From a virus (Duplodnaviria > Caudoviricetes): a stretch of 64,000 nucleotides of DNA. This document shows, piece after piece, positions 33,691 through 64,000 of this stretch. Location: the IMG/VR virus record IMGVR_UViG_3300032246_000977, positions 5,840 to 69,839 of that record; one strand, 5' to 3'. How positions within the stretch are numbered: the first letter of the stretch is position 1; each line of letters starts with the position of its first letter. Both the position numbers and the translations under genes were made by a program. The notes below the pieces were generated by a model, which worked only from the letters and a program-made list of their open reading frames with translations, did not search any database and was not told the DNA's origin.

Positions 33691-34677
33691 ATGATAAAAA
33701 TAATCACAATAGATGGTAAAATTTGGGACAAAGATCAGGCGGCCATAGACATTATATCCGCTATGCTTCGACATGAGCAACCTGTTAGAATTAGCCTAAA
33801 TGGAGAAGGTCCTTGTGCTGAACATGTGGGCCTGTATGATCTATTGGACCGTATATGTTCAGCACAGTCATGGCCTCGCCAAGCAATCGAAATAGAAACC
33901 GCAAACTTCTTAGAACAACACGCAGAATATCAAATTCGGCATGTCCACCAAGCGTACGAATTACGAGCCACACAAGATCTTTTTAAAACGAATCCGCCCA
34001 CAGCTAAACAGTTTGATAACATTTGCCATTTTGGGCATTTTATAGGACACAGCAATCAGCACAGGTTACACCTGGCCAGTTACTTGTACGCAAAACACTT
34101 TCATCAAACATTACAAAGTTATCATTGTTGTGTGACTGAGCCATACCATCGAGAGCATATAGGACTTGAAACATTTATGGCCAATGGTGCCACAGCAGTA
34201 GAAATTGATCGAGCCTACGATCTTTTGTCAGCAGGTCCGTTGACACTGGATTTAGCGGCCTGTCAAGATACCATCAGCGTTCCGGCCAATTTGGGCATAA
34301 TAGACTACTATCCTCAATTCTTTGTAGAACTGGTTAACCTTAGTTTTTATTCAGGACAAACTTTCTATGTCGACGAAAAGATCTGGAGACCCATGCTGAT
34401 GCGTACACCGTTTATTGTACAAGGCCCGCAGAATCTAATACGCAATTTACGACGTTTGGGATTTGAAACATTTGATGAATTCTGGGACGAAGGTTACTCA
34501 GAAGATCCTCCAGATTGTCAAGTTCGTGCTATAATAGCAATAGTACAGGCATTGGCCAAACAAACAAATAAAGAGCTAGAAGAAATGTATATCACCATGC
34601 TACCCAAACTTGAACATAATCGTAACTTACTCAAGGGCCTAAAGGCCGATGATTTTAACCAGGTATTTCAGCAATGA
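33691..34677 (+). CDS. GT10-like (GT-B) glycosyltransferase paralog 1
   Basis: FFVELVNLSFYSGQTFYVDEKIWRPMLMRTPFIVQG...LGFETFDEFWDEGY resembles the alpha-1,3-fucosyltransferase E-x-YxTEK-x-P motif. Confidence 0.5.
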   Translation: MIKIITIDGKIWDKDQAAIDIISAMLRHEQPVRISLNGEGPCAEHVGLYDLLDRICSAQSWPRQAIEIETANFLEQHAEYQIRHVHQAYELRATQDLFKTNPPTAKQFDNICHFGHFIGHSNQHRLHLASYLYAKHFHQTLQSYHCCVTEPYHREHIGLETFMANGATAVEIDRAYDLLSAGPLTLDLAACQDTISVPANLGIIDYYPQFFVELVNLSFYSGQTFYVDEKIWRPMLMRTPFIVQGPQNLIRNLRRLGFETFDEFWDEGYSEDPPDCQVRAIIAIVQALAKQTNKELEEMYITMLPKLEHNRNLLKGLKADDFNQVFQQ

Positions 34678-36089
34678 GCAATAAAGGAGACGAAGTCACA
34701 ACAGACTTCAAATCAAAATTTTTAGGCGATGCCGAGTTCATGAAAGACAACTTGGGTCCGGCACTGTGCTTGGCCAAATGGAAACAGGTAAGTCTACACC
34801 TGCCCACAGGACTCAATAATAGTTGTTACCATCCACCCTTACACGCAATTCCGGCCGACTTGCTGGCCGACAATCCCAGTGCCTTACACAACACTCCTTA
34901 CAAAAAGGAACAACGTAAGATCATGCTGAAACAGGAACGTCCTGCAGAATGTAGCTACTGCTGGGCTATGGAAGATAACAACAAACTGAGTGATCGTCAC
35001 TATAGATCAGGCGAACCCTGGGCCGCCAAGGATTTTAATGTTGTAGTAAATTCAAATGGAGATGAAGATGTTGTTCCCAGTTATGTTGAAGTTAATTTTA
35101 ATCATGTTTGTAATCTCAAATGTAGTTATTGCAGTCCACAGTTTAGTTCCTCATGGGCCGAAGAAGTCTCGCAACATGGAGGGTTTCCTACTAGCACTGT
35201 TCACAATGATCCCAGTCACTTTGTTGGCCGTAATCGTCCTATTCCTGTAAGAGAAGACAACCCTTATGTAGATGCATTTTGGTCTTGGTGGCCAACCCTG
35301 TATCCAGAGCTAGAACATTTCCGCATGACTGGTGGCGAGCCCATGTTGGACAAGAATACCTATCGTGTGTTTGACTATGTGTTGGCCAATCCCAAACCCA
35401 ATTTGCATTTAAATGTAACTAGTAACTTTAGTGTAGATGAAAAGTCGTGGCAACGGTACAAGGGCTATGTTAAAGAGCTGTGCGAGGGTGAAAAAATTGA
35501 ACACTTTATGCAGTACGTTAGTTTAGATAGTTGGGACGAGCAAGCTGAATACATCAGACACGGACTTGATATGGACTTGTTATGGGATCGAGTCAATCAA
35601 TTCCTAACAGAAATACCCGGACGTAACAGCATTACATTTATTGTAACAATGAACAATCTCAGTGTCACTGGTTTGCCTGCCTTGTTTGCTGGCATACTAG
35701 GACTTAGAAAAATTTACAGTACGACATATCAGCGAGTATGGTTTGACACGCCAGTGTTGCGAACTCCGACCTGGCAAAGCCTACAACTACTTCCAGAAAG
35801 CTATGTGGAACAACTAGAACATCTTTGGGCTTGGATGTTACGTCAAATTGAAACAGAAGAAACACGTTTTCAAGGATTCAAGGATTATGAAATAGCTCGC
35901 TTAGACAGAGACATAGCGTGGATGCGTGACGGACAACGATTAGATCCTAATTACATTAATCAACAGAAAGCAGACTTTTATCGTTTCTTTAACGAGCACG
36001 ATCGCAGGCGTGGCACAGACTTTATAAAGACATTTCCAGAAATGACCGCTTGGTGGAAGGAGTGCGAATACCATGCTAGGCAATCGTAA
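34674..36089 (+). CDS. Radical SAM protein with an N-terminal twitch domain (1)
   Basis: N-terminal CLAKW..SCYH..CSYCW; core CNLKCSYC; TGGEP; C-terminal HDRRRGTDFIKTFPEM. Confidence 0.9.
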   Translation: MSNKGDEVTTDFKSKFLGDAEFMKDNLGPALCLAKWKQVSLHLPTGLNNSCYHPPLHAIPADLLADNPSALHNTPYKKEQRKIMLKQERPAECSYCWAMEDNNKLSDRHYRSGEPWAAKDFNVVVNSNGDEDVVPSYVEVNFNHVCNLKCSYCSPQFSSSWAEEVSQHGGFPTSTVHNDPSHFVGRNRPIPVREDNPYVDAFWSWWPTLYPELEHFRMTGGEPMLDKNTYRVFDYVLANPKPNLHLNVTSNFSVDEKSWQRYKGYVKELCEGEKIEHFMQYVSLDSWDEQAEYIRHGLDMDLLWDRVNQFLTEIPGRNSITFIVTMNNLSVTGLPALFAGILGLRKIYSTTYQRVWFDTPVLRTPTWQSLQLLPESYVEQLEHLWAWMLRQIETEETRFQGFKDYEIARLDRDIAWMRDGQRLDPNYINQQKADFYRFFNEHDRRRGTDFIKTFPEMTAWWKECEYHARQS

Positions 36090-37227
36090 TTTGATCCTTG
36101 ACACAATGAGTGAAGTGTATGAGGAATTGTTGCCATACGCTACCGCAACGTTTATTCATTACGGAGATCACAAACCTGTTCCTGATAGCGTGTATGTATT
36201 GGGGCGCCAACAGGTAGTTGAAAATGTAGATAAGTTTAAACGCATGGCCGAAGACCCTGCGTATACTATGGTGTTTGGCAACAGTGCTGAGGGTAGTAGC
36301 ACATTAATTGCTCAACTGCGTGTGCTAGGGCTCGAAGAGCTAGTGTTAAGCAATAAAATTTTGTTGATCAGTGGCGGCGACATAGAAGCTCCATATCCGT
36401 ACATGTTACACGATCATTTTTTGATTAGAATTTTAGACTACGATGAAAACATTGACGAAATGAAACGCACAGAGGAGATTTTTAGTAAAACTGACAAGCC
36501 CTATAAGTTTTTATTTTTAAATGGCCGTGCTAGACCGCATAGAAAATATCTTTGGGAGCATTTTAAACGTCGCGGACTGCTGGACAACTCTTTATGGACT
36601 GTGTTAGACAGCAGACCCACTGTGGTTAGAAATTTTAATTTTTACGAAGACGGCACAAATGTCATGGCCACAAACACGCCTTTGCAAAGTTTGCCCGTCG
36701 AGTACGAAGTTGCTAGATATTGCAACGATCAACGAGATCCCAATGATTGGTCGTGGGCCGGACCGCCTGATCGTACCTTTGTAAAAAATGACTTATTTGA
36801 TAATCAATGGGGCGAAATATATCTCAATGCTGAACCCTATATTGATACCTACTTTAGCGTAGTAACCGAAACTGTGTACGATTACCCCTACAGCTTTAGA
36901 ACAGAAAAAATAGCCAAACCATTGGCAATGGGGCATCCATGGATATGTGCCACTAGCTGTGGCTGGTATCGAGACATACACGATATAGGATTCCGTACAT
37001 TCAACGGCATCATTGATGAAAGTTTTGATTTGATCGACAATGATCAAGACAGAATGGACAGAATTATAACAGTAGTTGACGACTTATGTCAACAAGACCT
37101 TGCAAGTTTTGTCAAAGAATGTTATAATGTATGTAAATACAATCAGCAACATCTCGCGGAAATCAGTATCAAAGTACGCAAAGAATTTCCCGATCGCTTT
37201 AGCCAATTTATCAAAAAATATCAATGA
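36073..37227 (+). CDS. GT10-like (GT-B) glycosyltransferase paralog 2
   Basis: KFLFLNGRARPHR and SVVTETVYDYPYSFRTEKIAKPLAMGHPW...IGFRTFNGIIDESFD. Confidence 0.55.
   Translation: MLGNRNLILDTMSEVYEELLPYATATFIHYGDHKPVPDSVYVLGRQQVVENVDKFKRMAEDPAYTMVFGNSAEGSSTLIAQLRVLGLEELVLSNKILLISGGDIEAPYPYMLHDHFLIRILDYDENIDEMKRTEEIFSKTDKPYKFLFLNGRARPHRKYLWEHFKRRGLLDNSLWTVLDSRPTVVRNFNFYEDGTNVMATNTPLQSLPVEYEVARYCNDQRDPNDWSWAGPPDRTFVKNDLFDNQWGEIYLNAEPYIDTYFSVVTETVYDYPYSFRTEKIAKPLAMGHPWICATSCGWYRDIHDIGFRTFNGIIDESFDLIDNDQDRMDRIITVVDDLCQQDLASFVKECYNVCKYNQQHLAEISIKVRKEFPDRFSQFIKKYQ
37100..37139 (+). promoter_or_regulatory. Internal sigma70-type promoter (TTGCAA-17-TG-n-TATAAT) followed by TAAATA
   Basis: -35 at 37100-37105, extended -10 at 37120-37128 and TAAATA at 37134-37139. 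All lie inside the 3' end of the upstream gene, ahead of the sulfotransferase/rSAM run. Confidence 0.5.
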
Positions 37228-37835
37228 ATGATTTTAAAATATCACTTACTAACTATAGCTTTGAAGTTCCAGCAGAGTGGAACATAGTGATAATTGCCAA
37301 CTATCGTACTGGCAGTACAGCCCTGGGCGATCTTTTGAGTCAGCTCACCGGATTGCCATTTATGGATGAAGTCTTTCATTATTGCCCAACAGCTAGAACA
37401 GGTGAGTTTGACCCTGAAAAACAATCTGTAATAAAAATTATGCCGGACCATTTACCACCGGAAGAGCACTGGGATTGTTTGTTCAATGATTCTTTTATTA
37501 TTGGATTGTATCGAGAAGATTTCGCAGCACAAGCATTGAGTTTTGGTATTTCTAGATATCTCAATGTTTGGCACCAAGAAAAAAACACCGACGCAGTTAT
37601 CAAAAACCCAAGCATAGACATACCATTCAGGCACATTATAGGCCCAGCCAAGGCTCTTTGGCGTAATCAACAACGGTGGAAAGACTGTCGGAGCTTTTTT
37701 GACATCGAGCTATGTTATGAACGGCTCCTACCAGACTTGGCCAAGTCTTGTTATGATGCTATGCCTAAATTAGATTTGTATAATCAAAAACTAGAACAGC
37801 TAAGAACACAAGTAGAAAGATGGCAACATGAATGA
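37224..37835 (+). CDS. Stf0-like sulfotransferase
   Basis: PAPS-binding loop IANYRTGSTAL, DEVFH, and IGLYREDFAAQALS..ISRYLNVWH matching the Stf0 R..QAVS..WH pattern. Confidence 0.6.
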   Translation: MNDFKISLTNYSFEVPAEWNIVIIANYRTGSTALGDLLSQLTGLPFMDEVFHYCPTARTGEFDPEKQSVIKIMPDHLPPEEHWDCLFNDSFIIGLYREDFAAQALSFGISRYLNVWHQEKNTDAVIKNPSIDIPFRHIIGPAKALWRNQQRWKDCRSFFDIELCYERLLPDLAKSCYDAMPKLDLYNQKLEQLRTQVERWQHE

Positions 37836-39165
37836 TTTAGATTTTAAACAAAATATTTTAGACAATCTGAGCTCTAGCTTTTGTGCAGCCAAATGGTACA
37901 ATGCTACCATCTGGTTGGGCTCAGGGCAAACAACCAGTTGCCATCATCCGCCCGCACACAGTATAGATTTGGAAGAAATTAAAACTCGTCCCAGTGCTAT
38001 ACACAACACAGTAGAAAAGAAAATAGATCGATTAAACATGCAGTTGGGCAATCGCCCCAAGGGTTGCGAATACTGCTGGAAGATCGAAGACATGGGTCGA
38101 GATAGTATCAGCGACCGTGTATACAAAAGTAAAATTTACTCTATAGAGGCCCTAGATGAAGCACACAAAACTCCGCATCAAGATGATGTCAATCTTCGCA
38201 CACTTGAAATTGCGTTCGATCGCACTTGCCAATTTGCTTGTAGCTATTGTAACCCTGCTTTCTCTAGCACATGGGTTAAAGACATACAACGCAACGGCCC
38301 CTATGAGTCCTTGGTGTCTGATGGGCGTGGCCACTTTACTCATGCTCACGATACGGCTCAACTATACCGGTTTGGTGAAACTAATCCCTATGTTGAAGCG
38401 TTTTTTAAGTGGTGGGAAACAGACCTTCATAAAACTCTTCAAGAACTGAGAATCACCGGTGGAGAGCCACTCATGTCAGGCGAAACTTGGAAGTTGCTAG
38501 ACTGGTTCAAGACCAATCAAGGTAAGAGTACAACACGTCTAGCTATTAACAGTAACCTAGGTGCAGAAGTAGACATTGATCGTTTGTTGGGCAGCATAGA
38601 AGGATTAGAAGTAGACATTTATACCAGCAACGAAAGTATAGGGGCACAAGCAGAATACATCCGTGATGGGCTAAACTATCGTCAATGGGTTAACAATGTA
38701 CAACGTATTGCAACCAGTGACCGTGTTCGCGGGGTACACATAATGAATACTATTAATGCATTGTGTTTGGAAAGTTTGACTGAATTCCTTGACATGGTAT
38801 TATGGTTCAAATTGATACATGGACGAGAAAAGATTAGTTTTACTTTAAACATACTGAGATTTCCTAGCTTTCAAAGTCCGCTGGTGTTGCCCAATGATAT
38901 TAGGTCTCGTCACAAGGAAAAGTTAGAACAGTGGCTGACTACAAATGCCGATAACCCATTGTTGCACGAACACGAAGTTAACCACATGCAAAGATTAATT
39001 GATTACTTAGATATAGTTAAAACGCCGCACTCAGATGCATTTGACATGCCAAAGCTACACAATGATTTTAAACAGTTCTTTACACAATATGATCAGCGTC
39101 GTGGAAAAGATTTTGCTCAAACATTTCCTGCATTAAAAGATTGGTACAATGACATACAAGTATAA
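37828..39165 (+). CDS. Radical SAM protein with an N-terminal twitch domain (2)
   Basis: CAAKW..SCHH..CEYCW; CQFACSYC; TGGEP; YDQRRGKDFAQTFPAL. Confidence 0.9.
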   Translation: MNDLDFKQNILDNLSSSFCAAKWYNATIWLGSGQTTSCHHPPAHSIDLEEIKTRPSAIHNTVEKKIDRLNMQLGNRPKGCEYCWKIEDMGRDSISDRVYKSKIYSIEALDEAHKTPHQDDVNLRTLEIAFDRTCQFACSYCNPAFSSTWVKDIQRNGPYESLVSDGRGHFTHAHDTAQLYRFGETNPYVEAFFKWWETDLHKTLQELRITGGEPLMSGETWKLLDWFKTNQGKSTTRLAINSNLGAEVDIDRLLGSIEGLEVDIYTSNESIGAQAEYIRDGLNYRQWVNNVQRIATSDRVRGVHIMNTINALCLESLTEFLDMVLWFKLIHGREKISFTLNILRFPSFQSPLVLPNDIRSRHKEKLEQWLTTNADNPLLHEHEVNHMQRLIDYLDIVKTPHSDAFDMPKLHNDFKQFFTQYDQRRGKDFAQTFPALKDWYNDIQV

Positions 39166-40405
39166 CTCAGCAGATTTAGTCAGGCCGGTAGAGTTAACAG
39201 AGCGTGAAGAATTCTTATTACGAGATTCTAAAACATTCTGCATATACCCCTGGATACACTTACACGCATATCCAACAGGTGAAGCATATCCTTGCTGTCA
39301 TGCCGAAATGGCTTATCCAGTAGGCAATACCAAATTTAAAACCTTAGAAACAATATACCGTGATGCACCCATGCGTGGGCTTAGAGAGGACATGTTGAAC
39401 GAGCGACCTAATCCTGCCTGTGGTCGTTGTTACGAGCAAGAAGAGTCAGGTTTCTTTTCAGGACGTCGCAGTGCCAACAAGCATCACGGGCATCATATCA
39501 AACGTATTGACGATGACAAGTTTCAAATGAGCTATTGGGATATTCGCTTCAGTAATTTGTGTAATCTCAGTTGCCGTAGTTGCGGGCATATCTTTAGCTC
39601 AAGTTGGTATCAAGATCAAGCCAAGTTGGCCGGCGGTACATGGAAGGAACAGAATGTAGCCCTAAATTATGCTGGGCGTACTGAAACAGACATGTGGGAA
39701 CAACTGATTCCACACCTGGACTATGTGGAACAAATATACTTTGCTGGTGGCGAGCCGCTGATGATGGCCGAACACTATAATATCCTAGATGAACTAGAAC
39801 GTCGCGGGCGATTTGATGTGCGTTTAATTTACAATACTAACTTTACACATATCAAACTAAAAGATCGTATGGTTTTTGATTATTGGCGTAAGTTTGACAG
39901 TGTAGCAGTAGGAGCCAGTTTAGATGCCATGGGCCCACGTGCGGAGTATATACGTCGAGGCACAGATTGGGACACAGTAGAACGTAACCGTGAGCAAATG
40001 ATGACTATATGTCCTAATGTAGACTTTTACATTAGTCCTACATTAAGTATTATGAACGCACTACACCTGCCTCAATTCCATAGAACCTGGGTAGACAAAG
40101 GTTTGATCCGACCACAAGACCTAAACGTAAATATCTTGCAAGACCCTGCACACTTCCGTATTGACATTGCACCTATAAAGTACAAACAACGTATTCGCTT
40201 GGCCTACGAAGAACATTTGTCGTGGTTACGCCCGTTGGATCCGCTTAATCGTGCCACTGTGGGTTTTGAAAGTGCCGTTAACTTCTTAATGGCCACAGAC
40301 AATTCTGCACTTGTTCCTAAGTTTTGGAGCAAGACCAATGAACTAGATTCTATACGCAATGAAAATATATTAGATATAATTCCAGAACTAGAGGCATTGA
40401 CATGA
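39149..40405 (+). CDS. Radical SAM protein with an N-terminal twitch domain (3)
   Basis: CIYPW..PCC..CGRCY; CNLSCRSC; AGGEP; LDSIRNENILDIIPEL. Confidence 0.9.
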   Translation: MTYKYNSADLVRPVELTEREEFLLRDSKTFCIYPWIHLHAYPTGEAYPCCHAEMAYPVGNTKFKTLETIYRDAPMRGLREDMLNERPNPACGRCYEQEESGFFSGRRSANKHHGHHIKRIDDDKFQMSYWDIRFSNLCNLSCRSCGHIFSSSWYQDQAKLAGGTWKEQNVALNYAGRTETDMWEQLIPHLDYVEQIYFAGGEPLMMAEHYNILDELERRGRFDVRLIYNTNFTHIKLKDRMVFDYWRKFDSVAVGASLDAMGPRAEYIRRGTDWDTVERNREQMMTICPNVDFYISPTLSIMNALHLPQFHRTWVDKGLIRPQDLNVNILQDPAHFRIDIAPIKYKQRIRLAYEEHLSWLRPLDPLNRATVGFESAVNFLMATDNSALVPKFWSKTNELDSIRNENILDIIPELEALT

Positions 40406-41625
40406 ACATACCACATGATAAGTTCTGCGTACTGCCTTGGGTCAGTTTAGAAACTAGTCCTATTGGTACTGTACGTCCTTGCTGTTTGGCCGATGACGAA
40501 ATCACTGACAATGCTGGAGATAAATTTGATTTAAATCATGCCAGTTTTCCTGCTATACAAAACAGCCAGTACATGCGAGATCTACGCAGAGAATTTTTAG
40601 ATGGTAAACAACCACAGACTTGCCGCAAGTGTTGGCGGGAAGAACGTGCTGGTCGCACCAGTAAACGTATGCATACACTAGATAGACTCAAACACATGTT
40701 GCCTGAGCAAGACTGGACTATTGACGCAAAGCCGTTGATGTTTTTAGATCTTAAACTGGGTAATATATGTAACTTGAAATGTCGCATATGTGGTTCATGG
40801 TCATCAAGTACCTTTGCGGTTGAAGAGCTCGATAATTTAACTGATGCTCAATTGGTTGATCGTAAAACAAATCATCATTATAAAATGCTACGTGCAGGTG
40901 CGTGGCCTAAAGAAAATCCCACGTTTTGGTCTGAAATGGATCAAATTGTTGACCAGGTTCGCTACATTGAATTCACTGGCGGCGAACCATTTATGATACA
41001 AGAACACTTTGATTTACTACAACGCTTGGTTGATCAGGGCTGTGCTGGACAAATTGAAATACACTACAACACCAACGGTACACAATATCCAGAGCATGCC
41101 GCAGAAATTTGGCAACACTTTCAATTGGTTGAAATAGCATTTAGCATTGATGATGTTGGAGCACGGTTTGAATATCAACGTTCAAATGCTGTATGGACAG
41201 AAGTGTGTGCCAACATTGAACGTTTTCGATTATTAAGAAGTCAATACTCTAACATACAATTGCAGGTGTGCTCCACAGTCAATGTGTTTAATGTTTACTA
41301 TCTTGAACAACTGGCCAACTGGATCAACACACAAGGATTTGATTTTATCTACTGGAACATGATGCACGATGCCTACTATTTCAGTATTGCTACCCTGCCT
41401 GAATCAGCCAAACAGGCCATAGCTGATCGATTAGCAACCGCCCAGGTAGATGATCGAACCCGTCAAGAATTTGACCATGTAATAGATTTTATGAACCGTG
41501 GTGCCAGTCTGGATGGCAACTTGTTACGCGAACAAATTGCTATTTTAGATGGTCGTCGTGGAGAAAGTCTCACCGACATCGAGCCAGAATTTGCCAAGTT
41601 AATTGAATATCATGTCCACTCTTAA
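40402..41625 (+). CDS. Radical SAM protein with an N-terminal twitch domain (4)
   Basis: CVLPW..PCC..CRKCW; CNLKCRIC; TGGEP; LDGRRGESLTDIEPEF. Confidence 0.9.
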   Translation: MNIPHDKFCVLPWVSLETSPIGTVRPCCLADDEITDNAGDKFDLNHASFPAIQNSQYMRDLRREFLDGKQPQTCRKCWREERAGRTSKRMHTLDRLKHMLPEQDWTIDAKPLMFLDLKLGNICNLKCRICGSWSSSTFAVEELDNLTDAQLVDRKTNHHYKMLRAGAWPKENPTFWSEMDQIVDQVRYIEFTGGEPFMIQEHFDLLQRLVDQGCAGQIEIHYNTNGTQYPEHAAEIWQHFQLVEIAFSIDDVGARFEYQRSNAVWTEVCANIERFRLLRSQYSNIQLQVCSTVNVFNVYYLEQLANWINTQGFDFIYWNMMHDAYYFSIATLPESAKQAIADRLATAQVDDRTRQEFDHVIDFMNRGASLDGNLLREQIAILDGRRGESLTDIEPEFAKLIEYHVHS

Positions 41626-42868
41626 ACAAATAATTGATCCACGCATTTATCGAGCACAAGCCGGACCTGACTGGCCAGCGTTTGAAGACTTTGTTACTGG
41701 AGCCACCGTTGCGGACCCAGAGATACAACAGGAACTGGATCAATTTGTTCGAGAGCAGACTGAAAATTATCAAGCAATCATCCTGTCTGGCGATGCTATT
41801 GCACTGGGTAATCAACAACGTCAGCAACAGGTATTTTTTAATAAACAATTAACCGGCGTTAATCCTTGCCGTGTTCCTTGGAATACTCTGGGTATTAATA
41901 CCAATGGACAGGTGTATATCTGTTACAGCCCTAGTTGGATTCCAAAATTTGTGGGCAATATACTGCAATGCACCGACATATATGATGTATTAAATTCAAC
42001 TACAGCACAGCAAATTAGACAAGAAATCCTAGCTGGTCGGTATTATTATTGTAATAATCGTTTGTGTGGATTTTTTGGAGCAATTGAGTCAGAGTCTTAT
42101 ACAACACAACCCACAGATCAAGACCCTATGCCTTTTATTGCGTCTCCAGAATTATTGGTAAATCAAATACCCAACGACCTTATTTTTGATTTTGATTATA
42201 CTTGTAATTTTAAGTGCCCTAGCTGTAGAACAGAAGTAATTAATTGGAATAAAGATCACGTTATTCGTGGAATTAATAATGGCATAGTACATCAAATTAA
42301 AACCCTAATTATTGATCGCATTGACAGCCAGCCTGTAAACATACGCTGGTGCGGTGGCGAGCCTTTTATTTCAGAAGTCTACATGGACTTGATGAATTAT
42401 ATTGTGGCCACGGGCAAAACAAATATTCAAAGCACAATACAAACCAACGGCAGTTATTTGAAAAAACATGCGGCATTTTTAAGTGGATTTTTGCCACATG
42501 TCAAAGAGCTTAGAATCAGCTTTGATGCTGGCACTGCGGCAACTTATAGTCAGCTCAGAGTAAATGGCAATTGGGCAACATTACTTGATAATGTACGCTA
42601 TGTAAAACAGTTAATTGATCAACGTGGGTTCGCCACTCAATTAACCGCGGACTTTGTAGTACAAGCCGCTAACTATAAAGAAATTCCAGAGTTTGTAAAA
42701 ATATGTAATGATATCGGAATAACAAATATTAATCTACAAAAAATGTGGAATTGGGGCACCAATAGTCAAAAAGAATTTGATCGCAATAACATCTATAATT
42801 CTTCTCATCCTGAATTTAATGATTTAAAACAAATTTTTGAATCAGTTGGGCAAAGGATACTCTCGTGA
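41603..42868 (+). CDS. Radical SAM protein with an N-terminal twitch domain (5), divergent
   Basis: N-terminal extension YRAQAGPDWPAFEDF; CRVPW..ICY..YCNNRLC; CNFKCPSC; CGGEP. It lacks the C-terminal DxxRG motif. Confidence 0.88.
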   Translation: MNIMSTLKQIIDPRIYRAQAGPDWPAFEDFVTGATVADPEIQQELDQFVREQTENYQAIILSGDAIALGNQQRQQQVFFNKQLTGVNPCRVPWNTLGINTNGQVYICYSPSWIPKFVGNILQCTDIYDVLNSTTAQQIRQEILAGRYYYCNNRLCGFFGAIESESYTTQPTDQDPMPFIASPELLVNQIPNDLIFDFDYTCNFKCPSCRTEVINWNKDHVIRGINNGIVHQIKTLIIDRIDSQPVNIRWCGGEPFISEVYMDLMNYIVATGKTNIQSTIQTNGSYLKKHAAFLSGFLPHVKELRISFDAGTAATYSQLRVNGNWATLLDNVRYVKQLIDQRGFATQLTADFVVQAANYKEIPEFVKICNDIGITNINLQKMWNWGTNSQKEFDRNNIYNSSHPEFNDLKQIFESVGQRILS

Positions 42869-44154
42869 AACCAGACACCTTGTGCATGGCACCGTGGACA
42901 CACACTTATCTCTCTCCACAAACAGAACGACGCATGTGTTGTGCCAGTCGTGAGCCTGCACAGAATTTTGAACAGTATATAGATACCAAGTCGGGCACAG
43001 GTCGATATATTCCCATCACGCTAGAAGAGCACTGGAACGGCGAACATATGAAGAGTGTGCGTCGTCGTATGATGGCTGGAGAAACCTTGCCAGAGTGCGA
43101 TGTATGCAACAGCAAGCTATTAAACACAGATGTTTATCGCAGTTACTTTAATTGTTTGTTTGAACACAAGTATGAGTCAGCCATGGCCGCTACACAAGCC
43201 GACGGCACAACTACCGTAAAGCCGGTCAGTTGGGACTATCGTTTCAGTAATCTATGTAACTTTAAATGCCGTACGTGTGGCGATATGTTGAGTAGTGCTT
43301 GGGAAAGCGAACAACGCCAGCATGAAATGATTGACTGGTCAAACACCAAAAACAACTGGATGAAGCCTGAAGTTCGAGCGGAAATATCTCATTTTCAAGA
43401 CACACAAATTGAAGCAGAATTCAGTGATGCAGTAGAACAACACCGTGTTGAAGAAGTATATTGGGTCGGCGGTGAGCCCTTGATGTACGAACAACACTGG
43501 CGTTATATGCAACGTATAATTGAATTAGGAGACGGACCAAATGTTTACGCTAGATATAATACTAATCTTAGCCGTGTGGATTATCGCGGTGTTAACCTTT
43601 ATAGTGACATACTTGCTCGTTTGCGAGACTGGCAAATCTGCGCAAGCCTGGACGGTACAGGACGCACAGGAGAATATATCAGAACAGGACTGGATTATAG
43701 TAAGTGGCGAGATAATTTTGCCATGGGATTGGACATATCCCGCCACCGGCGACAAATGCGGATCGATTTTACCCTCACCCTTCCAGGTTTATTTGAAGTC
43801 CAAAACATCCAACAACTCGCAGACGAATTTGGAGTAGATATCTTGGCCAAAGTGGTGTTTTCATTTACGCCTGACATCATATTAAGCCCACTGGCCTTGC
43901 CCAGGCAGTTACTGGACCAGACTGTGGATCGTTTGGTAATCACATTACCGGCAGGTGCTTTAAAAGAAGTATTGCTACAGTTAAAAACCAGACCAACCTT
44001 TGCAGAACAATGGCCTGATACTTTTGAACAGGCACTTGCAAAAGGCAAGCGTCGCGTGTTACAATTAGAATCAATCCGTGGAGACACATACACTCTAGCG
44101 GATATATTACAACAGGACCCAGAAATTTATGAGTGGTATAACTCGATTACTTGA
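42865..44154 (+). CDS. Radical SAM protein with an N-terminal twitch domain (6)
   Basis: CMAPW..MCC..CDVC; CNFKCRTC; VGGEP; LESIRGD. Confidence 0.9.
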   Translation: MKPDTLCMAPWTHTYLSPQTERRMCCASREPAQNFEQYIDTKSGTGRYIPITLEEHWNGEHMKSVRRRMMAGETLPECDVCNSKLLNTDVYRSYFNCLFEHKYESAMAATQADGTTTVKPVSWDYRFSNLCNFKCRTCGDMLSSAWESEQRQHEMIDWSNTKNNWMKPEVRAEISHFQDTQIEAEFSDAVEQHRVEEVYWVGGEPLMYEQHWRYMQRIIELGDGPNVYARYNTNLSRVDYRGVNLYSDILARLRDWQICASLDGTGRTGEYIRTGLDYSKWRDNFAMGLDISRHRRQMRIDFTLTLPGLFEVQNIQQLADEFGVDILAKVVFSFTPDIILSPLALPRQLLDQTVDRLVITLPAGALKEVLLQLKTRPTFAEQWPDTFEQALAKGKRRVLQLESIRGDTYTLADILQQDPEIYEWYNSIT

Positions 44155-58970: not shown

Positions 58971-59246
58971 TCAACGGCTAAATTTCAGCACAAACATAAT
59001 ATGCTTCTTTTCATCTACAACACTATACGCTAGACTTACATTGTCGCCATCATACTCGAGTTTAACACCATAATATTCCTTTACATAATCGTAGAATGTA
59101 AGGAACCCCTGCCCAGCAGGCACAGCATCAGCAAGAGTATCATATTCATTTTTTACTCGTTGTAGTCTAAGAAAATGATCAGTATCGCCGCCTATAATGG
59201 TATCTAACCTAGCGGCTGTATCAGCATAATACTCGTCCTTACTCAC
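58971..59246 (-). CDS. Small protein of the FxL(K/R)W family
   Basis: Ends YSVVDEKKHIMFVLKFSR. Confidence 0.7.
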   Translation of the reverse strand: MSKDEYYADTAARLDTIIGGDTDHFLRLQRVKNEYDTLADAVPAGQGFLTFYDYVKEYYGVKLEYDGDNVSLAYSVVDEKKHIMFVLKFSR

Positions 59247-59523
59247 CCGACCACCATTTGATTGTTTTTGCTCGTAGTTTGATCATGGTAAACTCGTGCT
59301 TATCTACTCTGTGTCGACGAGCTTCCCAAGCAGGTTTGATCATGTACACACCGTTGGCATTTTCTAACCATACTTTGGTGCTACGAGCCACAAAGTCGTC
59401 ATGTGTTTTAAAACACATTTTGCCATTGTCTGCAGGTGAGCAGTTATACATACACCAATATCGCCAAGTGTCGCCAAAGATGGTGCCATCATATTTTGGA
59501 TCTATTTCGTAGTAGTAGTTCAT
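59239..59523 (-). CDS. Small hypothetical protein (possible FxL(K/R)W family)
   Basis: VDKHEFTMIKLRAK near the C-terminus. Confidence 0.65.
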   Translation of the reverse strand: MNYYYEIDPKYDGTIFGDTWRYWCMYNCSPADNGKMCFKTHDDFVARSTKVWLENANGVYMIKPAWEARRHRVDKHEFTMIKLRAKTIKWWSGE

Positions 59524-61034
59524 TTTAATAACGCTCGTGCTTGTTCTAATTCTGGAATATAGTCTCCGAGACGACTTCCTCTGGCTTGATCTAGTTGGTC
59601 ATTGTACTTGAAAAATGCCGCCAGCAGATCAAAATCACAATCATAATTTTCAAAACGATCAATGATTTCGTCCACTAGATGATTGGTATTGCGTCCTGAA
59701 TTGTAATATACCTTGGTTTCTCTACAACGGTACATTGATTCTAACACTTGTTTTCGCAATGGATTATGCCAGGGCCCTAATGAAGTTGATGTGTCCCCAG
59801 CTGGTTGTACCAAGGTATTACACCCTGGAAACTCTCGATCATAAAATTCATAAATCTTGTGAACACGGGTGGCATTGTATAAACTGATCACAGTTTGAAA
59901 TGACAACACATGTCCTTGTTCCTGTACGCGATGACAATTGTCTACAATCGTATCAAAATTGCTACCCCATCTGATGTAATCGTTCATTTTTTTATAGCCG
60001 TCGATGCTGACACTAAACGTAACTCTAGGAAATTGTTTCAACAGATCCATCAGTCTGTCACTGAGTTTTTGTGCATTGGTTCCAATGTTTAAATCAAAAT
60101 CAACTTGATTTTGTTTGATACAACGTCTGAGAAATTCATAGAACTCTGGAAAAATAGTAGGCTCTCCGCCGGCCCAGTAAATGCGTTTTGCTGTGTCAAA
60201 GTTGATTTTGTCATAAGGAAAATCTTGAAAACGCCAGATATCAGTTGTTACAGGGATTCCTAATTTTTTATTTTCTTCTTCTATTAGATGGCTATGCTTG
60301 TCATCACACATTCTGCACATGATGTTACACTTGTTGCTGGGTCTTATTTCATAGCTAACAGGATACTTTACATTTTTTAGATCTAGCTTATTGGTTAATC
60401 TTAGATCCATTACCCATTCAAGCGATTCAAACTGTCTAGCAGATTCACCGCTTAGTTCTTCTCGCTCATAACAAATATTGCATTTGTCAGGCATTCTGAG
60501 TCCGGCCAACATGTTGTTTCTAATAGGAGCAAATGCTGGATCCGTAGACCAATCAGTGATGGAATCAATTTGGGTCACCGGATCTGGGCATTTCATACAC
60601 ATAACAGCAGATCCGTAGTCGTTGATCAAATTTATAAACGGCAAGGCACACAGGCTCTTGTTGGATTTAAACAGGTCGTGCCAATAGATAATAGTTTTAT
60701 TATTTTTGTTGTTTCTAAAGTCTGTTTTGAACTGTTTTTTTTCTAAATCTATCATGAGTCTAAAAGTGTTGACAAACGATTTCCAGTGCGGATAATCGTC
60801 TATGCCTTGGTCTAGCATTAGGATCAAATCAAAATGCGGTGCCAGGTCAACAACAATACTGCCAGGAGCCACATCTACAATAGTTGTGTGATAGTATCCA
60901 GGATCTTTTAAACGATAGGTGTCGCCGGTTATCAACCCATGGTTTGTGGTCTGATCATTGGCAGCCAACGCACTAACCAAATGGTCTGTATTTGAAGTTT
61001 CGTTACCAATGCACAGTATTTTTTTATTAAACAT
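59520..61034 (-). CDS. Radical SAM protein with an N-terminal extension and twitch domain (7)
   Basis: About 125 extra N-terminal residues, then CALPF..MCMKC..CNICY; CNIMCRMC; AGGEP; LDQARGSRLGDYIPEL. Confidence 0.9.
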   Translation of the reverse strand: MFNKKILCIGNETSNTDHLVSALAANDQTTNHGLITGDTYRLKDPGYYHTTIVDVAPGSIVVDLAPHFDLILMLDQGIDDYPHWKSFVNTFRLMIDLEKKQFKTDFRNNKNNKTIIYWHDLFKSNKSLCALPFINLINDYGSAVMCMKCPDPVTQIDSITDWSTDPAFAPIRNNMLAGLRMPDKCNICYEREELSGESARQFESLEWVMDLRLTNKLDLKNVKYPVSYEIRPSNKCNIMCRMCDDKHSHLIEEENKKLGIPVTTDIWRFQDFPYDKINFDTAKRIYWAGGEPTIFPEFYEFLRRCIKQNQVDFDLNIGTNAQKLSDRLMDLLKQFPRVTFSVSIDGYKKMNDYIRWGSNFDTIVDNCHRVQEQGHVLSFQTVISLYNATRVHKIYEFYDREFPGCNTLVQPAGDTSTSLGPWHNPLRKQVLESMYRCRETKVYYNSGRNTNHLVDEIIDRFENYDCDFDLLAAFFKYNDQLDQARGSRLGDYIPELEQARALLK

Positions 61035-61042
61035 AGATTATG

Positions 61043-61258
61043 TTACTTATCGCACCATTTCAATTGAAAATAGGTTTCCCACTGCTGATCTTTGAATTCA
61101 AATTCTACTGTGGCTGGAGCAATAGACCTTAACCAATCATTTACCGCTGGTGTATAACGCCAGGTGTAATCTTGATCCGCCTGTAGACCCTGTGCATCCA
61201 CCGAGTCTTTGTAGACCCAAATCTCGTGTGCTGTTTTAACTATAATTTTTAACCCCAT
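61043..61258 (-). CDS. Small protein of the FxL(K/R)W family
   Basis: Ends FEFKDQQWETYFQLKWCDK; probable ATG at 61258. Confidence 0.7.
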   Translation of the reverse strand: MGLKIIVKTAHEIWVYKDSVDAQGLQADQDYTWRYTPAVNDWLRSIAPATVEFEFKDQQWETYFQLKWCDK

Positions 61259-61476
61259 CGCAACATGAACCAAGTGTAGTCTTCATCGCGATCAAAGATG
61301 TAATAAACTGTTCCAAACTTTCCTGGCGGGCTATTAGTATCAACTCTATACCTAAATGCTTCACGACACCGCTGTCCGTATTGCCTTGGCGTTTCTAAAT
61401 GCTTAACAGGCAAGGTACGCTTGGCATTCCAAAATGCTCGATTAAACTTATCTTCCATGACATTGACTCGGATCAC
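61249..61476 (-). CDS. Small protein of the FxL(K/R)W family
   Basis: Ends YIFDRDEDYTWFMLRWG. The GTG start overlaps the upstream stop; the start is uncertain. Confidence 0.7.
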   Translation of the reverse strand: MIRVNVMEDKFNRAFWNAKRTLPVKHLETPRQYGQRCREAFRYRVDTNSPPGKFGTVYYIFDRDEDYTWFMLRWG

Positions 61477-61664
61477 GACCACCTCAACATAAACATAACA
61501 TAGTCCGAATCCAACTCAAACTCAAACACTCCTTCTGATATAAACAACCAAGGTCCTTGGCAGTTTTGACTACACCAGTCAATACAAGGTTGCCAACCGT
61601 GATATCTGTGACCTGATACCGGATCGGACCGCATGACTGGAGGCATGATGCTAGCTATTTTCAT
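61473..61664 (-). CDS. Small protein of the FxL(K/R)W family
   Basis: Ends FEFELDSDYVMFMLRWS; ATG 61664 overlaps the upstream stop. Confidence 0.7.
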   Translation of the reverse strand: MKIASIMPPVMRSDPVSGHRYHGWQPCIDWCSQNCQGPWLFISEGVFEFELDSDYVMFMLRWS

Positions 61665-61978
61665 ACCGGGTCTCCCCACCTTATTTTAAACCAACTCAGT
61701 TCTTCATCACCACGTAAGTAGACAATGCTACCGCCTAGCCTGATATTAAAAGTCCAATGCGGATTGTTCATAGTGTCGCGGTCAATATGTTCGGACATTC
61801 CATACGTCTGCGTCATCCACTTTCTTATGCTATCAAAGTCCAACATTTTATTAACCCTAATAAAATATTTAAAATGGTCGTTTGCGACGGTTTCGTTTAC
61901 TGTATAGTTCATTGTTGCGGCCATCTCTGCTATAACACGATCGTGATCTTGTTTCCAGTAGTCATATTGTGTCTTCAT
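61661..61978 (-). CDS. Small protein of the FxL(K/R)W family
   Basis: Ends VYLRGDEELSWFKIRWGDPV. Confidence 0.7.
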   Translation of the reverse strand: MKTQYDYWKQDHDRVIAEMAATMNYTVNETVANDHFKYFIRVNKMLDFDSIRKWMTQTYGMSEHIDRDTMNNPHWTFNIRLGGSIVYLRGDEELSWFKIRWGDPV

Positions 61979-61986
61979 AAAAGGTT

Positions 61987-62035
61987 GGAGGGCGGTGCGA
62001 ACACAGCCCTGTGTATTAAAGCTACACCACCCTCC
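61987..62035 (-). other. Structured intergenic RNA element (11-bp outer stem with an inner hairpin) 3' of the AAA ATPase gene
   Basis: The - strand GGAGGGUGGUG pairs with CACCGCCCUCC (one G-U pair) and encloses ACACA-GGGC-UGUGU. Confidence 0.65.
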
Positions 62036-62043
62036 TTTGACTA

Positions 62044-63129
62044 CTAGGCGGATGCCTGTAAAATATACTTGCCGTAGCGTTGATGGAACTCATCAAAGTT
62101 CTTGAGCTTGGTAGGCTGGAATGGCAAGTTGTATGTGGTAAGAGCAATTCTAGCACCCATAACAACCAACTCAGTTTCAAAGTTCTTCATCATGTAAGCA
62201 AAGAAGTTATCTGCCATTTCATGGAACTGTTTATCCGATACCTTGGCTTCAATTGCCGCCTTAAGCTCGTAGCACATGCTGATTACCAGGCTATACATGG
62301 CTGATACTTCTTTGACATTCAGCTCTTTTTCCTTGCCAGCTAAGATGTCTTCGGGCTTGGGCATCTTACCAGCAACCTTGCGGTGTGCCATAAACTTAAC
62401 AGCAAGACCTTCGCCTACTGTACCTGCGATCAGGTTCATGATTGTATCGTCATCACCATCTTCATCTTCAAGCAATTCTGATACGAATGTCCAACTACGT
62501 GGTGTTGCAAAGGCACGACTTGCTGACTTAGCATCAAAATCGTAAAGATCTTGTTTGGCGTAACTCAAGTAACCAACCACATCTTTATGGATGTTCTTGT
62601 TTACTGCCCACTCTTGCCATGATGCAAAATCACACTTCATCTCTTGGTGGATGAAACGATTTGCCAGCGGAGTAGGCATACGATATGTAACACCTTTGTC
62701 ACTCTCACGGTTACCAGCGGCAACCATTACTACATTCTTGGGCAAACAATATTTGCCAATGGCTCGATTCAAGATCAACTGATATGACGCGGCCTGAACA
62801 CTTGGTGCAGAGCTATTAAGCTCATCCATAAACAGAACTACGATAGGATACTGGCTGGCCAATTCCTCAGTTGGCAAATCGATAGGCTCGGCCCAATCCA
62901 TCTTACCAATTTCTTTATTGTAAAAAGGAATACCACGAATATCTGTGGGCTCCATTTGACCCAAACGAAGGTCAATCATATAACCACCGAGTTCTTCAGT
63001 AATGTCTGCTACCAATTCTGACTTACCAATACCAGGAGGGCCCCAGAGGAATAGTGGGCGTTGTTTTTTAAATGCTTTGAGTAGACTCTTACGAGCCTGC
63101 ACCGAAGTGACTGTTCTTGATTCTGACAT
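62044..63129 (-). CDS. MoxR-like AAA+ ATPase (AAA_5-type)
   Basis: Walker A GPPGIGKS, Walker B LFMDELN, DIRGIP, AAGN, PLANRF and ATPRSW. Confidence 0.9.
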   Translation of the reverse strand: MSESRTVTSVQARKSLLKAFKKQRPLFLWGPPGIGKSELVADITEELGGYMIDLRLGQMEPTDIRGIPFYNKEIGKMDWAEPIDLPTEELASQYPIVVLFMDELNSSAPSVQAASYQLILNRAIGKYCLPKNVVMVAAGNRESDKGVTYRMPTPLANRFIHQEMKCDFASWQEWAVNKNIHKDVVGYLSYAKQDLYDFDAKSASRAFATPRSWTFVSELLEDEDGDDDTIMNLIAGTVGEGLAVKFMAHRKVAGKMPKPEDILAGKEKELNVKEVSAMYSLVISMCYELKAAIEAKVSDKQFHEMADNFFAYMMKNFETELVVMGARIALTTYNLPFQPTKLKNFDEFHQRYGKYILQASA

Positions 63130-63176
63130 AAGGGCTGTGTCCTATAAATTGTGATTAAAATTAACTACTAAACTAC

Positions 63177-63205
63177 ATTGTACAACAAAATGATTTAACA
63201 GTCAA
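63177..63205 (-). promoter_or_regulatory. Sigma70 promoter (TTGACT-17-TACAAT)
   Basis: -35 at 63205-63200 and -10 at 63182-63177, upstream of the ATPase gene. Confidence 0.7.
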
Positions 63206-63413
63206 GTGCCAAGGCCGCTTCGTAACCCTCAGCTTCTAAGATAATATCGCGGACGTTTTCGCGGTCAACTGTATCACCGCAGAATTCTCCACCTGTTGTA
63301 TATAGACGACACTTGTAGAGCTGGGTAGCTAGGTTAATTTGGGTAGCGGTAAAGCCATAATCATAGATACCATTAGGGCCGTAAAACTCAAGCATATAAC
63401 GAGTAAAGTCCAT
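63195..63413 (-). CDS. Small hypothetical protein
   Basis: 72 aa with an AAGGAG RBS and its own promoter; contains FCGDTVDRENVRDI. Confidence 0.75.
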   Translation of the reverse strand: MDFTRYMLEFYGPNGIYDYGFTATQINLATQLYKCRLYTTGGEFCGDTVDRENVRDIILEAEGYEAALALDC

Positions 63414-63420
63414 TGTTGCT

Positions 63421-63474
63421 CCTTATTATTAACTATACAACTATTATAGCAAAAAGGTTATTTTTGGTCAACCG
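63421..63474 (-). promoter_or_regulatory. Sigma70 promoter cassette (TTGACC-17-TG-n-TATAAT) with leader and RBS; repeat copy 2
   Basis: -35 at 63471-63466 and -10 at 63448-63443. Near-identical to 57183-57236. Confidence 0.8.
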
Positions 63475-63515: not shown

Positions 63516-64000
63516 ATGATATATTGGCAAGTCGGTAGTAAAAAATTCACTAACAAATGGCTAGCAGCATTAGAATCTGCAAAAACCAAAGAACAAATTA
63601 GATTCAATCTACACGACGAAACCTTTGATCAAATTGATTGGACCCAAGAACCTGTCGAGACCTGGGACCAACTACTGGATCGGCGAGCACAACAGATTGC
63701 CCAAAAAAACAAACCCATTGTGCTTAATTTTTCTGGTGGCACCGACAGTTATACCATCTATCAAGTTTTCAAAAGAAATCGCATACACATAGATGCGTTA
63801 TATCTGCGTAGAAGAAAAACAGACGTAGACTACACCATCAATCAAAAGGTATTGGATTTTTTGGCAAATGATGTAGAAGATAAAACCACGCGAATATTGA
63901 TTCGCGAAGACAGTGCCAAAGTATTTGAACAGGCATATACCAGTTCAGATTGGTTGTTTGAACACGGTGCCAGTAGATTTGAATTTAGTCTTGGATTTGG
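63516..64000 (+). CDS. PP-loop (adenine nucleotide alpha-hydrolase-like) protein, 3'-partial, not in the ORF track
   Basis: Translates as MIYWQVGSKKF...IDWTQEP...KPIVLNFSGGTDSYTIYQVF..., containing the SGGxDS PP-loop. The frame stays open to the window end. Confidence 0.75.
   Translation, partial: MIYWQVGSKKFTNKWLAALESAKTKEQIRFNLHDETFDQIDWTQEPVETWDQLLDRRAQQIAQKNKPIVLNFSGGTDSYTIYQVFKRNRIHIDALYLRRRKTDVDYTINQKVLDFLANDVEDKTTRILIREDSAKVFEQAYTSSDWLFEHGASRFEFSLGF

Follow-up and report, generated by a model that had tools for sequence, protein, structure and literature searches.

Does the messenger RNA (mRNA) of a phage gene carry, behind its stop codon, a sequence that closes its own ribosome-binding site (RBS)? 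The question is raised by an AAA+ ATPase gene in IMG/VR record IMGVR_UViG_3300032246_000977, a 69.8-kb fragment of an uncultured virus with an estimated completeness of 20%, of which a stretch of 64 kb (hereafter the window) was analysed. An initial annotation of the window had proposed that this mRNA's 3' untranslated region (3'-UTR) is complementary to its own ribosome-binding region. Sequence comparison gives good support to a functional RNA-RNA pairing that joins the translation-initiation region to the loop of a 3' hairpin, and we consider it probable, at about 0.6, that this pairing is a cis fold-back helix that occludes the initiation region and limits the output of ATPase.

Complementarity between the two ends of the ATPase mRNA

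The gene and the parts of the candidate element, in the order of the transcript, are the following:

63131-63142, minus strand: 5' arm of the long-range helix; comprises GGA from the AGGA Shine-Dalgarno (SD) sequence (63140-63143) and the whole spacer, to 1 nucleotide (nt) before the AUG
62044-63129, minus strand: AAA+ ATPase gene, 361 codons and a stop codon; phrog_1297, Pfam AAA
62025-62035, minus strand: 5' arm of the outer stem; holds GGAGG and starts 11 nt after the stop codon
61998-62024, minus strand: hairpin loop of 27 nt, containing the anti-RBS
61999-62010, minus strand: 3' arm of the long-range helix (anti-RBS), in the 3' hairpin loop, 1 nt away from the outer stem's 3' arm
61987-61997, minus strand: 3' arm of the outer stem, with AACC and then only four U between it and the AUG of the next gene

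The AUG of the ATPase gene is at 63129-63127, and the 3' untranslated sequence is complementary to the SD and start region of the same transcript. In the RNA, the two arms form a helix of 12 base pairs (bp), with 10 Watson-Crick pairs in a row and one G-U pair. The initial annotation had described this helix correctly: both 12-mers were located at 61999-62010 and 63131-63142, with 10 nt perfectly complementary, and the 5' arm does overlap the AGGA and run to 1 nt before the AUG. Read as an inverted repeat, the arms 62001-62010 and 63131-63140 are 10 nt long, 100% complementary and 1120 nt apart, and of the 19 inverted pairs listed for 61900-63250 no other is 10 nt long and perfect. Exact copies of the 10-mer occur in the window only at the two arms, while up to one mismatch gives 8 matches against 3.9 ± 2.2 expected.

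The helix was then compared with chance. The RNAduplex energy of −23.5 kcal/mol was matched by 0 of 223 null windows on one side and by 22 of 230 on the other; as this energy is too permissive with G+C-rich partners of 100 nt, a contiguous-helix score (G-C 3, A-U 2, G-U 1) was used instead. The window helix scores 30, a value reached by none of 280 other 100-nt windows against the ATPase leader and by none of 289 other 39-mers against the ATPase 3' region. When the own start region and the own 3' flank were compared for each of 50 crude gene calls of the window, the ATPase gene was again the highest, with 30, followed by a gene with 22, the median being 15.

The 3' element has a pronounced local structure. 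Its local fold has an energy of −27.5 kcal/mol (z −3.1), with only 1 of 200 shuffles as good, and most of this is contributed by the G+C-rich outer stem of 11 bp (62025-62035 with 61987-61997), which alone gives −22.7 kcal/mol, compared to about −4.5 kcal/mol for each of two alternative weak inner helices. The final six bases of the anti-RBS stay unpaired when the element takes its best local fold, and could act as a toehold. The self-complementary inner hairpin that had been annotated around the 3' arm is feasible, the outer stem together with it giving −27.0 kcal/mol; the minimum-energy fold (−27.5 kcal/mol) uses a different weak inner helix. The element does not have the form of an intrinsic terminator, a G+C-rich stem with a short loop and an immediately adjoining U-tract: a stem is present, but the loop has 27 nt, the four U come after a spacer of 4 nt, and the terminator scan did not report it. 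A search of 61800-63300 on both strands against Rfam 15 gave three matches (E values 0.79-0.92), far below the gathering thresholds and none at the element.

The extent of the mRNA on the 5' side follows from a predicted promoter:

63200-63205, minus strand: −35 hexamer TTGACT of a predicted sigma-70-type promoter of the ATPase gene
63177-63182, minus strand: predicted −10 hexamer TACAAT, which would place the transcript start near 63170
63130-63170, minus strand: 5' untranslated region of about 40 nt, its start placed from the promoter; locally unstructured

The window promoter, TTGACT-17-TACAAT at 63205-63177 (minus strand), matches the consensus at 10 of 12 positions and overlaps the end of a preceding open reading frame (ORF) of 72 amino acids. 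Across the related loci described below, 132 of 134 distinct upstream regions have a TTGACn-17-TAtAAT that fits the consensus at 10-12 of 12 positions, whatever gene precedes, with the predicted −10 ending 31-57 nt before the ATG. Considering this near-consensus promoter behind any upstream gene, the ATPase gene looks like its own strongly transcribed host-polymerase unit. Many loci additionally share an A/T-rich leader block of about 18 nt between promoter and SD. When folded alone, the leader and first codons of the window (63100-63170) reach only −3.2 kcal/mol (z +1.9), and 195 of 200 shuffles were equal or better.

In the full mRNA of 1192 nt (63170-61979), the long-range helix is part of the predicted minimum-energy fold, with a probability of about 0.96 (0.84-0.97 for each of its 12 pairs). 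As an isolated duplex the 12-mers give −21.0 kcal/mol, to be set against about −4.5 kcal/mol for the inner helices that would be displaced. The prediction is thus one of a long-distance 5'-3' helix that closes the full-length mRNA, as in the hok mRNA, the analogy being a functional one only.

The helix among relatives of the ATPase gene

Relatives were collected by IMG/VR scans with three ATPase proteins; individual loci are designated by L numbers. The window protein gave 205 relatives, of which the best 80 (75-99% identity) were used, the L040 protein gave 133, of which 80 were used, and 80 were used of at least 599 stretches matching the L038 protein. After removal of duplicate contigs, of loci with cut-off flanks (e.g. 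L015, L039, L141, L239) and of identical 5'/3' combinations, the final set comprised 137 distinct 5'/3' combinations, window included, in which we searched for a helix that joins positions −30 to +9 around the start to the first 100 nt beyond the stop. Named phage genomes contributed little: a DNA search with 61600-63450 gave only 13 distant ATPase matches, with 71-78% identity over 4-9% of the query. Contigs from RNA libraries (three RNA libraries among 20 runs, 0.05 of words) contained pieces of relatives of the ATPase gene, the flanks of relatives differing and showing up as loose ends, and contigs being of a nature that cannot show transcript ends.

A helix with a score of at least 24 was present in 64 of the 137 distinct loci. 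The same score was reached by 0.92% of 8074 null windows and by 1.7% of 414 control pairs drawn from other parts of the loci at an equal 1.1-kb geometry, so that the possibility raised in the initial annotation, namely that the complementarity is absent in related genomes, does not hold against the 1-2% expected. At a score of at least 28 the numbers were 31 of 137 loci, compared to 0.14% and 0.5% of the nulls. Every helix lies within about −25 to +8 of the AUG. The helices are therefore inside the region that the 30S subunit must bind, and the simplest reading of this position would be a fold-back brake.

The hairpin around the 3' partner recurs together with the helix. For 62 of the 64 loci with a helix, minimum-energy folds of the 3' flank place the partner within a local stem of 6 bp or more, with a mean of 47% of the anti-RBS bases unpaired. 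The anti-RBS ends 0-1 nt before the 3' arm of the stem in 44 of these 62, and the long-range helix could stack there on the outer stem. A T-rich tail (at least 5 T in the next 12 nt) follows 21 of the 62 enclosing hairpins, and such loci qualify as terminator-like. In other clades the outer stem is replaced wholesale by different complementary arms.

The whole mRNA was aligned for 47 sequences (42 distinct, mean column identity 75%). The leader AGCC and the loop GGC are invariant in all 47, while the surrounding non-coding and synonymous sites vary freely. In the helix columns, 44-53 with 1208-1219, 93.5% of the cells are paired (ten gap-free pairs). For the long-range helix and the outer stem together (21 pairs), none of 500 column shuffles reached the observed pairing or covariation score, and pairing falls to 31-56% when the partner is slid by 1-3 columns. 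The outer stem (helix 4) is 73% paired in the alignment, a figure that understates its pairing, since arm length varies from clade to clade and the alignment does not bring the arms into register. Two pairs of the long-range helix vary on both sides: pair 45/1218 is G-C in 17 sequences, G-U in 15, A-U in 9 and unpaired in none, and pair 49/1214 is C-G in 32, U-G in 2, U-A in 2 and other in 6. When the states of pair 45/1218 are placed on a coding-region tree, A-U appears in at least four places beside G-U neighbours and G-C in at least three; by Fitch parsimony on this tree each side changed five times and A.C was never produced.

Changes of length are compensated as well. In the register that we call type b (L051, L053, L062, L064, L068, L074, L092, L236 and others), the helix has an AGCCC/GGGCU core, extends 3'-wards over the start codon and reaches 11-14 bp. 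Where the leader reads CCC-U-AUG, it stands opposite the loop CAU-A-GGG; in L100 and L112 the leader CCC-AUG, lacking the U, stands opposite CAU-GGG; and in L221 CC-AUG stands opposite CAU-GG. In L121 and L122 the base after the AUG, in codon 2, is C in place of U, and its partner is G in place of A.

Furthermore, at least three clades reach such a contact with unrelated sequences. L038 has 13 bp just 5' of the SD. L040 has 13 bp with the loop of a different G+C-rich hairpin and a further 8 bp over the AUG. For both, 0 of approximately 333-343 null windows on either side reached the score. In L144, 11 bp cover the SD and spacer, with a score of 27 that is within the top 0.3% of the pooled null.

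The kind of mismatch indicates which molecule pairs. In the 63 distinct loci that use the register of the window (630 cells), the non-Watson-Crick cells are 45 G.U, 9 A.C and 36 other, and this excess of G.U over A.C points to the sense-strand RNA as the one that does the pairing. The check for covariation that the initial annotation had proposed is therefore positive, since both sites co-vary in homologous phage loci and other clades rebuilt the complementarity with different sequences. Compensatory substitutions, compensatory indels and independent solutions together indicate that the pairing has been kept by selection, as judged from sequence comparison. The interpretation offered in the initial annotation is thereby supported in part, its autoregulatory switch and its processed sRNA of ~50 nt being conjectural.

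Two further features were observed in the flanks. One clade (L100, L209, L210, L214, L137, L038, L161) has a second 5'-3' complementarity of 6-13 bp, which joins a C-rich block upstream of the SD (about −26 to −13) to a G-rich block within ~15 nt beyond the stop; L100 and L209 have this complementarity in addition to the loop/RBS helix, and it may clamp the ends further. In the 3' flank of L165, L184 and L197, the anti-RBS motif makes up the outer stem together with a copy of the leader motif, and a second anti-RBS lies in the loop. In these three loci the leader could compete with the 3' arm of a terminator-like stem, and a link between RBS occupancy and termination is conceivable.

Possible functions of the pairing

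We infer reduced translation from the position of the helix; action in cis, repression in place of a change in stability, and the order of folding are inferred as well. The ATPase gene would be transcribed from its own strong sigma-70-like, host-type promoter, into an mRNA with a short unstructured leader and, shortly behind the stop codon, a stem-loop rich in G+C that presents the 12-nt anti-RBS in its large loop. The RBS would be free during transcription and captured after synthesis of the 3' element, when the anti-RBS would pair with the SD and spacer of the same mRNA. Pairing would probably start at the bases that are unpaired in the local fold, displace the weak inner helix and stack on the outer stem. 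The mRNA would be closed into a loop, the initiation region would be hidden from 30S subunits, and the amount of ATPase made per transcript would be limited.

Several observations weigh against this fold-back reading. No helix with a score of at least 24 is present in 73 of the 137 distinct relatives, and the ATPase gene of PA5oct has no 5'-3' helix either (best score 14, duplex −8.7 kcal/mol), PA5oct-like Pseudomonas jumbo phages being the closest cultured relatives in a protein search (50% identity), so that no cultured model came to light. L047 and L048, evident recombinants, keep the 5' motif with a foreign 3' end, while in L052 and L111 the 5' side has decayed and the 3' motif survives as a terminator arm. 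In one subclade (L052, L097, L111, L163) this double use of the 3' motif as a terminator arm means that it could be conserved without any long-range partner. Because of relatedness and recombination among the sequences, the cell counts overstate the number of independent events, and the weight of the parsimony result is modest, with p ~0.03 as a rough estimate from the 5+5 changes that avoid A.C. On the side of energetics, the RNAduplex energy alone fails to separate the window helix from one of the two nulls, and in the nested fold the outer stem has to be dissolved for the long-range helix to persist. The more likely structure, with stem and loop helix together, would be a pseudoknot, which is outside the scoring of the folding programs. 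Finally, the "3'-UTR" may be an intercistronic region of a longer transcript, because only 21 of the 62 hairpins are T-rich-tailed and the next gene starts 8 nt past the stem.

A more far-reaching form of the fold-back reading, which we put forward only tentatively, is that of a self-closing "timer" invented several times by jumbo phages, in which the RBS would be open only on the nascent mRNA, or the mRNA would be closed until 3' trimming. Were this so, the loop would capture the SD and AUG some 1.1 kb on and stack on the stem as a pseudoknotted closed loop, giving a fixed small burst of ATPase per transcript, independent of the lifetime of the transcript. The repeated, sequence-independent re-creation of the contact would then mark it as a selectable design principle and not a one-off.

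The same pairing may instead act in trans, a stable 3' stem-loop fragment or small RNA (sRNA) hitting the RBS of other copies of the ATPase mRNA, with the consequence that accumulated message would shut off new message. All of the comparative evidence for pairing fits this equally well, and yet we regard it as unlikely, since no other plausible target was found: with up to two mismatches the 12-mer occurs 7 times in the 69.8-kb record compared to 4 times for the reversed control, and the six one-mismatch copies of the 10-mer in the window are not beside start codons. A permissive target scan of the loop sequence (8-mers, G-U allowed) returned hundreds of matches and was uninformative. sRNAs derived from 3'-UTRs are an established class, and the very stable stem-loop (−27.5 kcal/mol) would protect a 3' fragment in which part of the anti-RBS, on average 47% of its bases, is unpaired in the local fold. 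Nevertheless, Hfq-dependent sRNAs of this class typically end in a terminator and U-tail, whereas only 21 of the 62 hairpins have a T-rich tail, and pairing in cis would be expected to have a large advantage in local concentration. For icaR, the choice between cis and trans was likewise left open by its authors in the available part of their report (PMC3868564).

Still less likely, in our estimate, is a role of the helix as a stability device, by which it would hide a ribonuclease entry site or the 5' end, or create a double-strand cleavage site that times decay. Both actions have precedents in the parts of the reports available: a 14-bp 5'/3'-UTR interaction modulates RNase Y cleavage of the hbs mRNA of Bacillus subtilis (PMC5737220), and the icaR duplex is a substrate of RNase III (PMC3868564). 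The helix of L038, just 5' of the SD and not over it, would suit such a role, as would the position next to the outer stem in 44 of 62 loci, where stacking would give a quasi-continuous helix of ~23 bp. In most loci, however, the helix covers the SD, spacer or AUG and must compete with 30S binding regardless.

A feature of the DNA itself, with the arms as sites of a DNA-binding protein or as inverted repeats for recombination or inversion of the gene, is very improbable. In double-stranded DNA both arms are the same site in opposite orientation, and the 3' element is nearly palindromic in some loci. Against this, the mismatches are biased to G.U of the sense strand (45 vs 9 A.C), clades use unrelated and non-palindromic sequences (L038, L040, L144), and the 3' site is inside an RNA-type stem-loop with co-varying arms. 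No inverted form of the gene occurs among the loci, in all of which the promoter is on the same side, and 10-13 bp is short for recombination.

Chance complementarity without function, for which it may be said that among many inspected genes one 10-mer match may turn up by accident and that one energy-based null was not exceeded (22 of 230), is the least credible reading and is already contradicted by the comparative sequence data, given the outlying score of the window, the 64 of 137 loci against 1-2% expected, the compensatory substitutions and indels and the independent solutions; like the role at the level of DNA, it is poorly compatible with the data.

The ATPase locus and comparison with known systems

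The window contains myovirus baseplate genes, an ORF of 4889 codons and a run of radical-SAM paralogues, and the source is taken to be a jumbo phage because related contigs reach 320-350 kb. The ATPase protein matches phrog_1297, annotated "ATPase", over its full length (E value 3.7e-96) and Pfam AAA with 31.4 bits, and its closest solved structures are AAA domains of midasin (E value 1.9e-8). The name MoxR used in the initial annotation is a loose one, as the match to Pfam AAA_3 (MoxR, PF07726) has 22.7 bits, below the gathering cut-off of 27, and that to bpMoxR has 17.5 bits against a cut-off of 27, so that phrog_1297 "ATPase" is the solid assignment. Cyanophage relatives of the ATPase (~33% identity) carry the annotation "MoxR-like ATPase", and MoxR-vWA pairs are reported in some jumbo phages in the available part of PMC7824862. 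Two consecutive in-frame TAG codons end the gene (62041-62046, minus strand, the second TAG at 62041-62043).

Downstream of the element lies a further gene:

61661-61978, minus strand: next gene, 105 amino acids, without family match; context only, outside the element

Its AUG (61978-61976) is 8 nt past the 3' stem and has no SD of its own. The side-claim that the GGAGG of the stem is the sequestered SD of this gene was not sustained: the motif begins 57 nt before the AUG and is paired in the stem, and L001 has the same downstream gene behind an arm of different sequence.

This gene belongs to six small ORFs (68-105 amino acids) at 58971-61978 (minus strand), 3' of the ATPase gene, which mostly overlap and flank a radical-SAM gene. 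Common to them is a motif close to the C terminus, aromatic-x-L-R/K-W-G/S, which suggests small paralogues arranged in tandem, with stops and starts that overlap; no Pfam or PHROG match was obtained for any of the six. The radical-SAM gene between them (59523-61034, minus strand, 504 amino acids, with a Pfam match) is additional to an array of at least six adjacent radical-SAM genes of 407-471 amino acids at 34674-44151 (plus strand), one at 34674-36086 and five across 37828-44151. This unusual array of paralogues adjoins genes for a carbamoyltransferase, an aminotransferase and a nucleotide-sugar epimerase. The 4889-codon ORF (9174-23840, plus strand) is a single one and follows a baseplate wedge gene. 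An ORF that leaves the end of the window (63516-63998, plus strand) has an SGGxDS-type motif and may encode a PP-loop ATPase.

Direct pairing of both ends of a bacterial-type mRNA has few documented cases (icaR, hok and hbs), known mostly from experiments in one organism. The ATPase locus adds natural evidence, with dozens of diverged phage loci that appear to keep the contact through compensatory substitutions and indels and at least three clades that rebuilt it from unrelated sequence, so that the whole reads as a mutational series done by evolution. It speaks for RBS capture by the 3' end as a means, open to selection, of adjusting how much a gene yields; the gene in question encodes an AAA+ ATPase, is preceded by a near-consensus promoter and belongs to uncultured jumbo phages of freshwater. 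With a leader of ~40 nt and a 3' element of ~60 nt, it would be a compact part testable in laboratory hosts. It is also a warning for annotation, since hairpins after phage genes may have more than a terminator role.

Our search of the open-access literature on jumbo phage MoxR and on 5'-3' UTR pairing in phages found no description of such a phage element. The comparison with known systems draws on part of the text of each report. The nearest is icaR of Staphylococcus aureus, whose 3'-UTR pairs with the SD region of its own mRNA, blocks the initiation complex and creates an RNase III site (PMC3868564). The ATPase mRNA likewise has a 3' untranslated sequence complementary to its own SD region. 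icaR, however, uses a UCCCCUG anti-SD motif in a 3'-UTR of 390 nt with ~40 paired bases, whereas the ATPase loci have 10-14 bp over SD, spacer and AUG, with a stem-loop, no more than ~60 nt beyond the stop codon, that holds the partner in its loop, and in a phage gene. The icaR pairing is backed by toeprints, RNase III assays and mutants, and the ATPase element by sequence comparison. Membership of an icaR family by descent was considered and rejected, as neither the UCCCCUG motif nor homology to the icaR 3'-UTR was found and the anti-RBS is different and varies by clade.

In the hok mRNA of plasmid R1, the tac/fbi fold-back stem inhibits translation (PMC9841398). It is, as in the ATPase mRNA, a long-distance 5'-3' helix, and it keeps the full-length hok mRNA closed and untranslatable. 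Its action is indirect, the SD being sequestered by another box and the RNA being reopened by slow 3' trimming, whereas the 3' element of the ATPase mRNA would pair directly with SD and AUG. The hok system also includes an antisense RNA and a toxin; here no antisense partner is evident, although no search for one was made, and the product is an AAA+ ATPase and not a small toxin. In hbs of B. subtilis, a short long-range helix also joins leader and 3'-UTR of one mRNA, the 14-bp interaction modulating RNase Y cleavage (PMC5737220). That helix acts on cleavage in the leader and leaves the SD uncovered, in contrast to the ATPase helix, which covers the initiation region.

Additionally, distal anti-SD-like sequences in B. 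subtilis pair in vivo with the RBS over hundreds of nt, block initiation and promote decay, according to the available part of a preprint (Gill et al. 2025, PMC12697547). These distances give experimental plausibility to the 1.1 kb considered here. In that report such sequences are a cost and are depleted, whereas the ATPase complementarity appears to be retained and repaired by selection and, unlike them, extends beyond the SD into gene-specific spacer and start-codon sequence. The ATPase element would thus be kin to icaR, hok and hbs by mechanism and not by descent, there being no sequence relation. It stands apart by unusually rich comparative support and by the uncommon site of the anti-RBS, which lies in a hairpin loop beside the stem's 3' arm.

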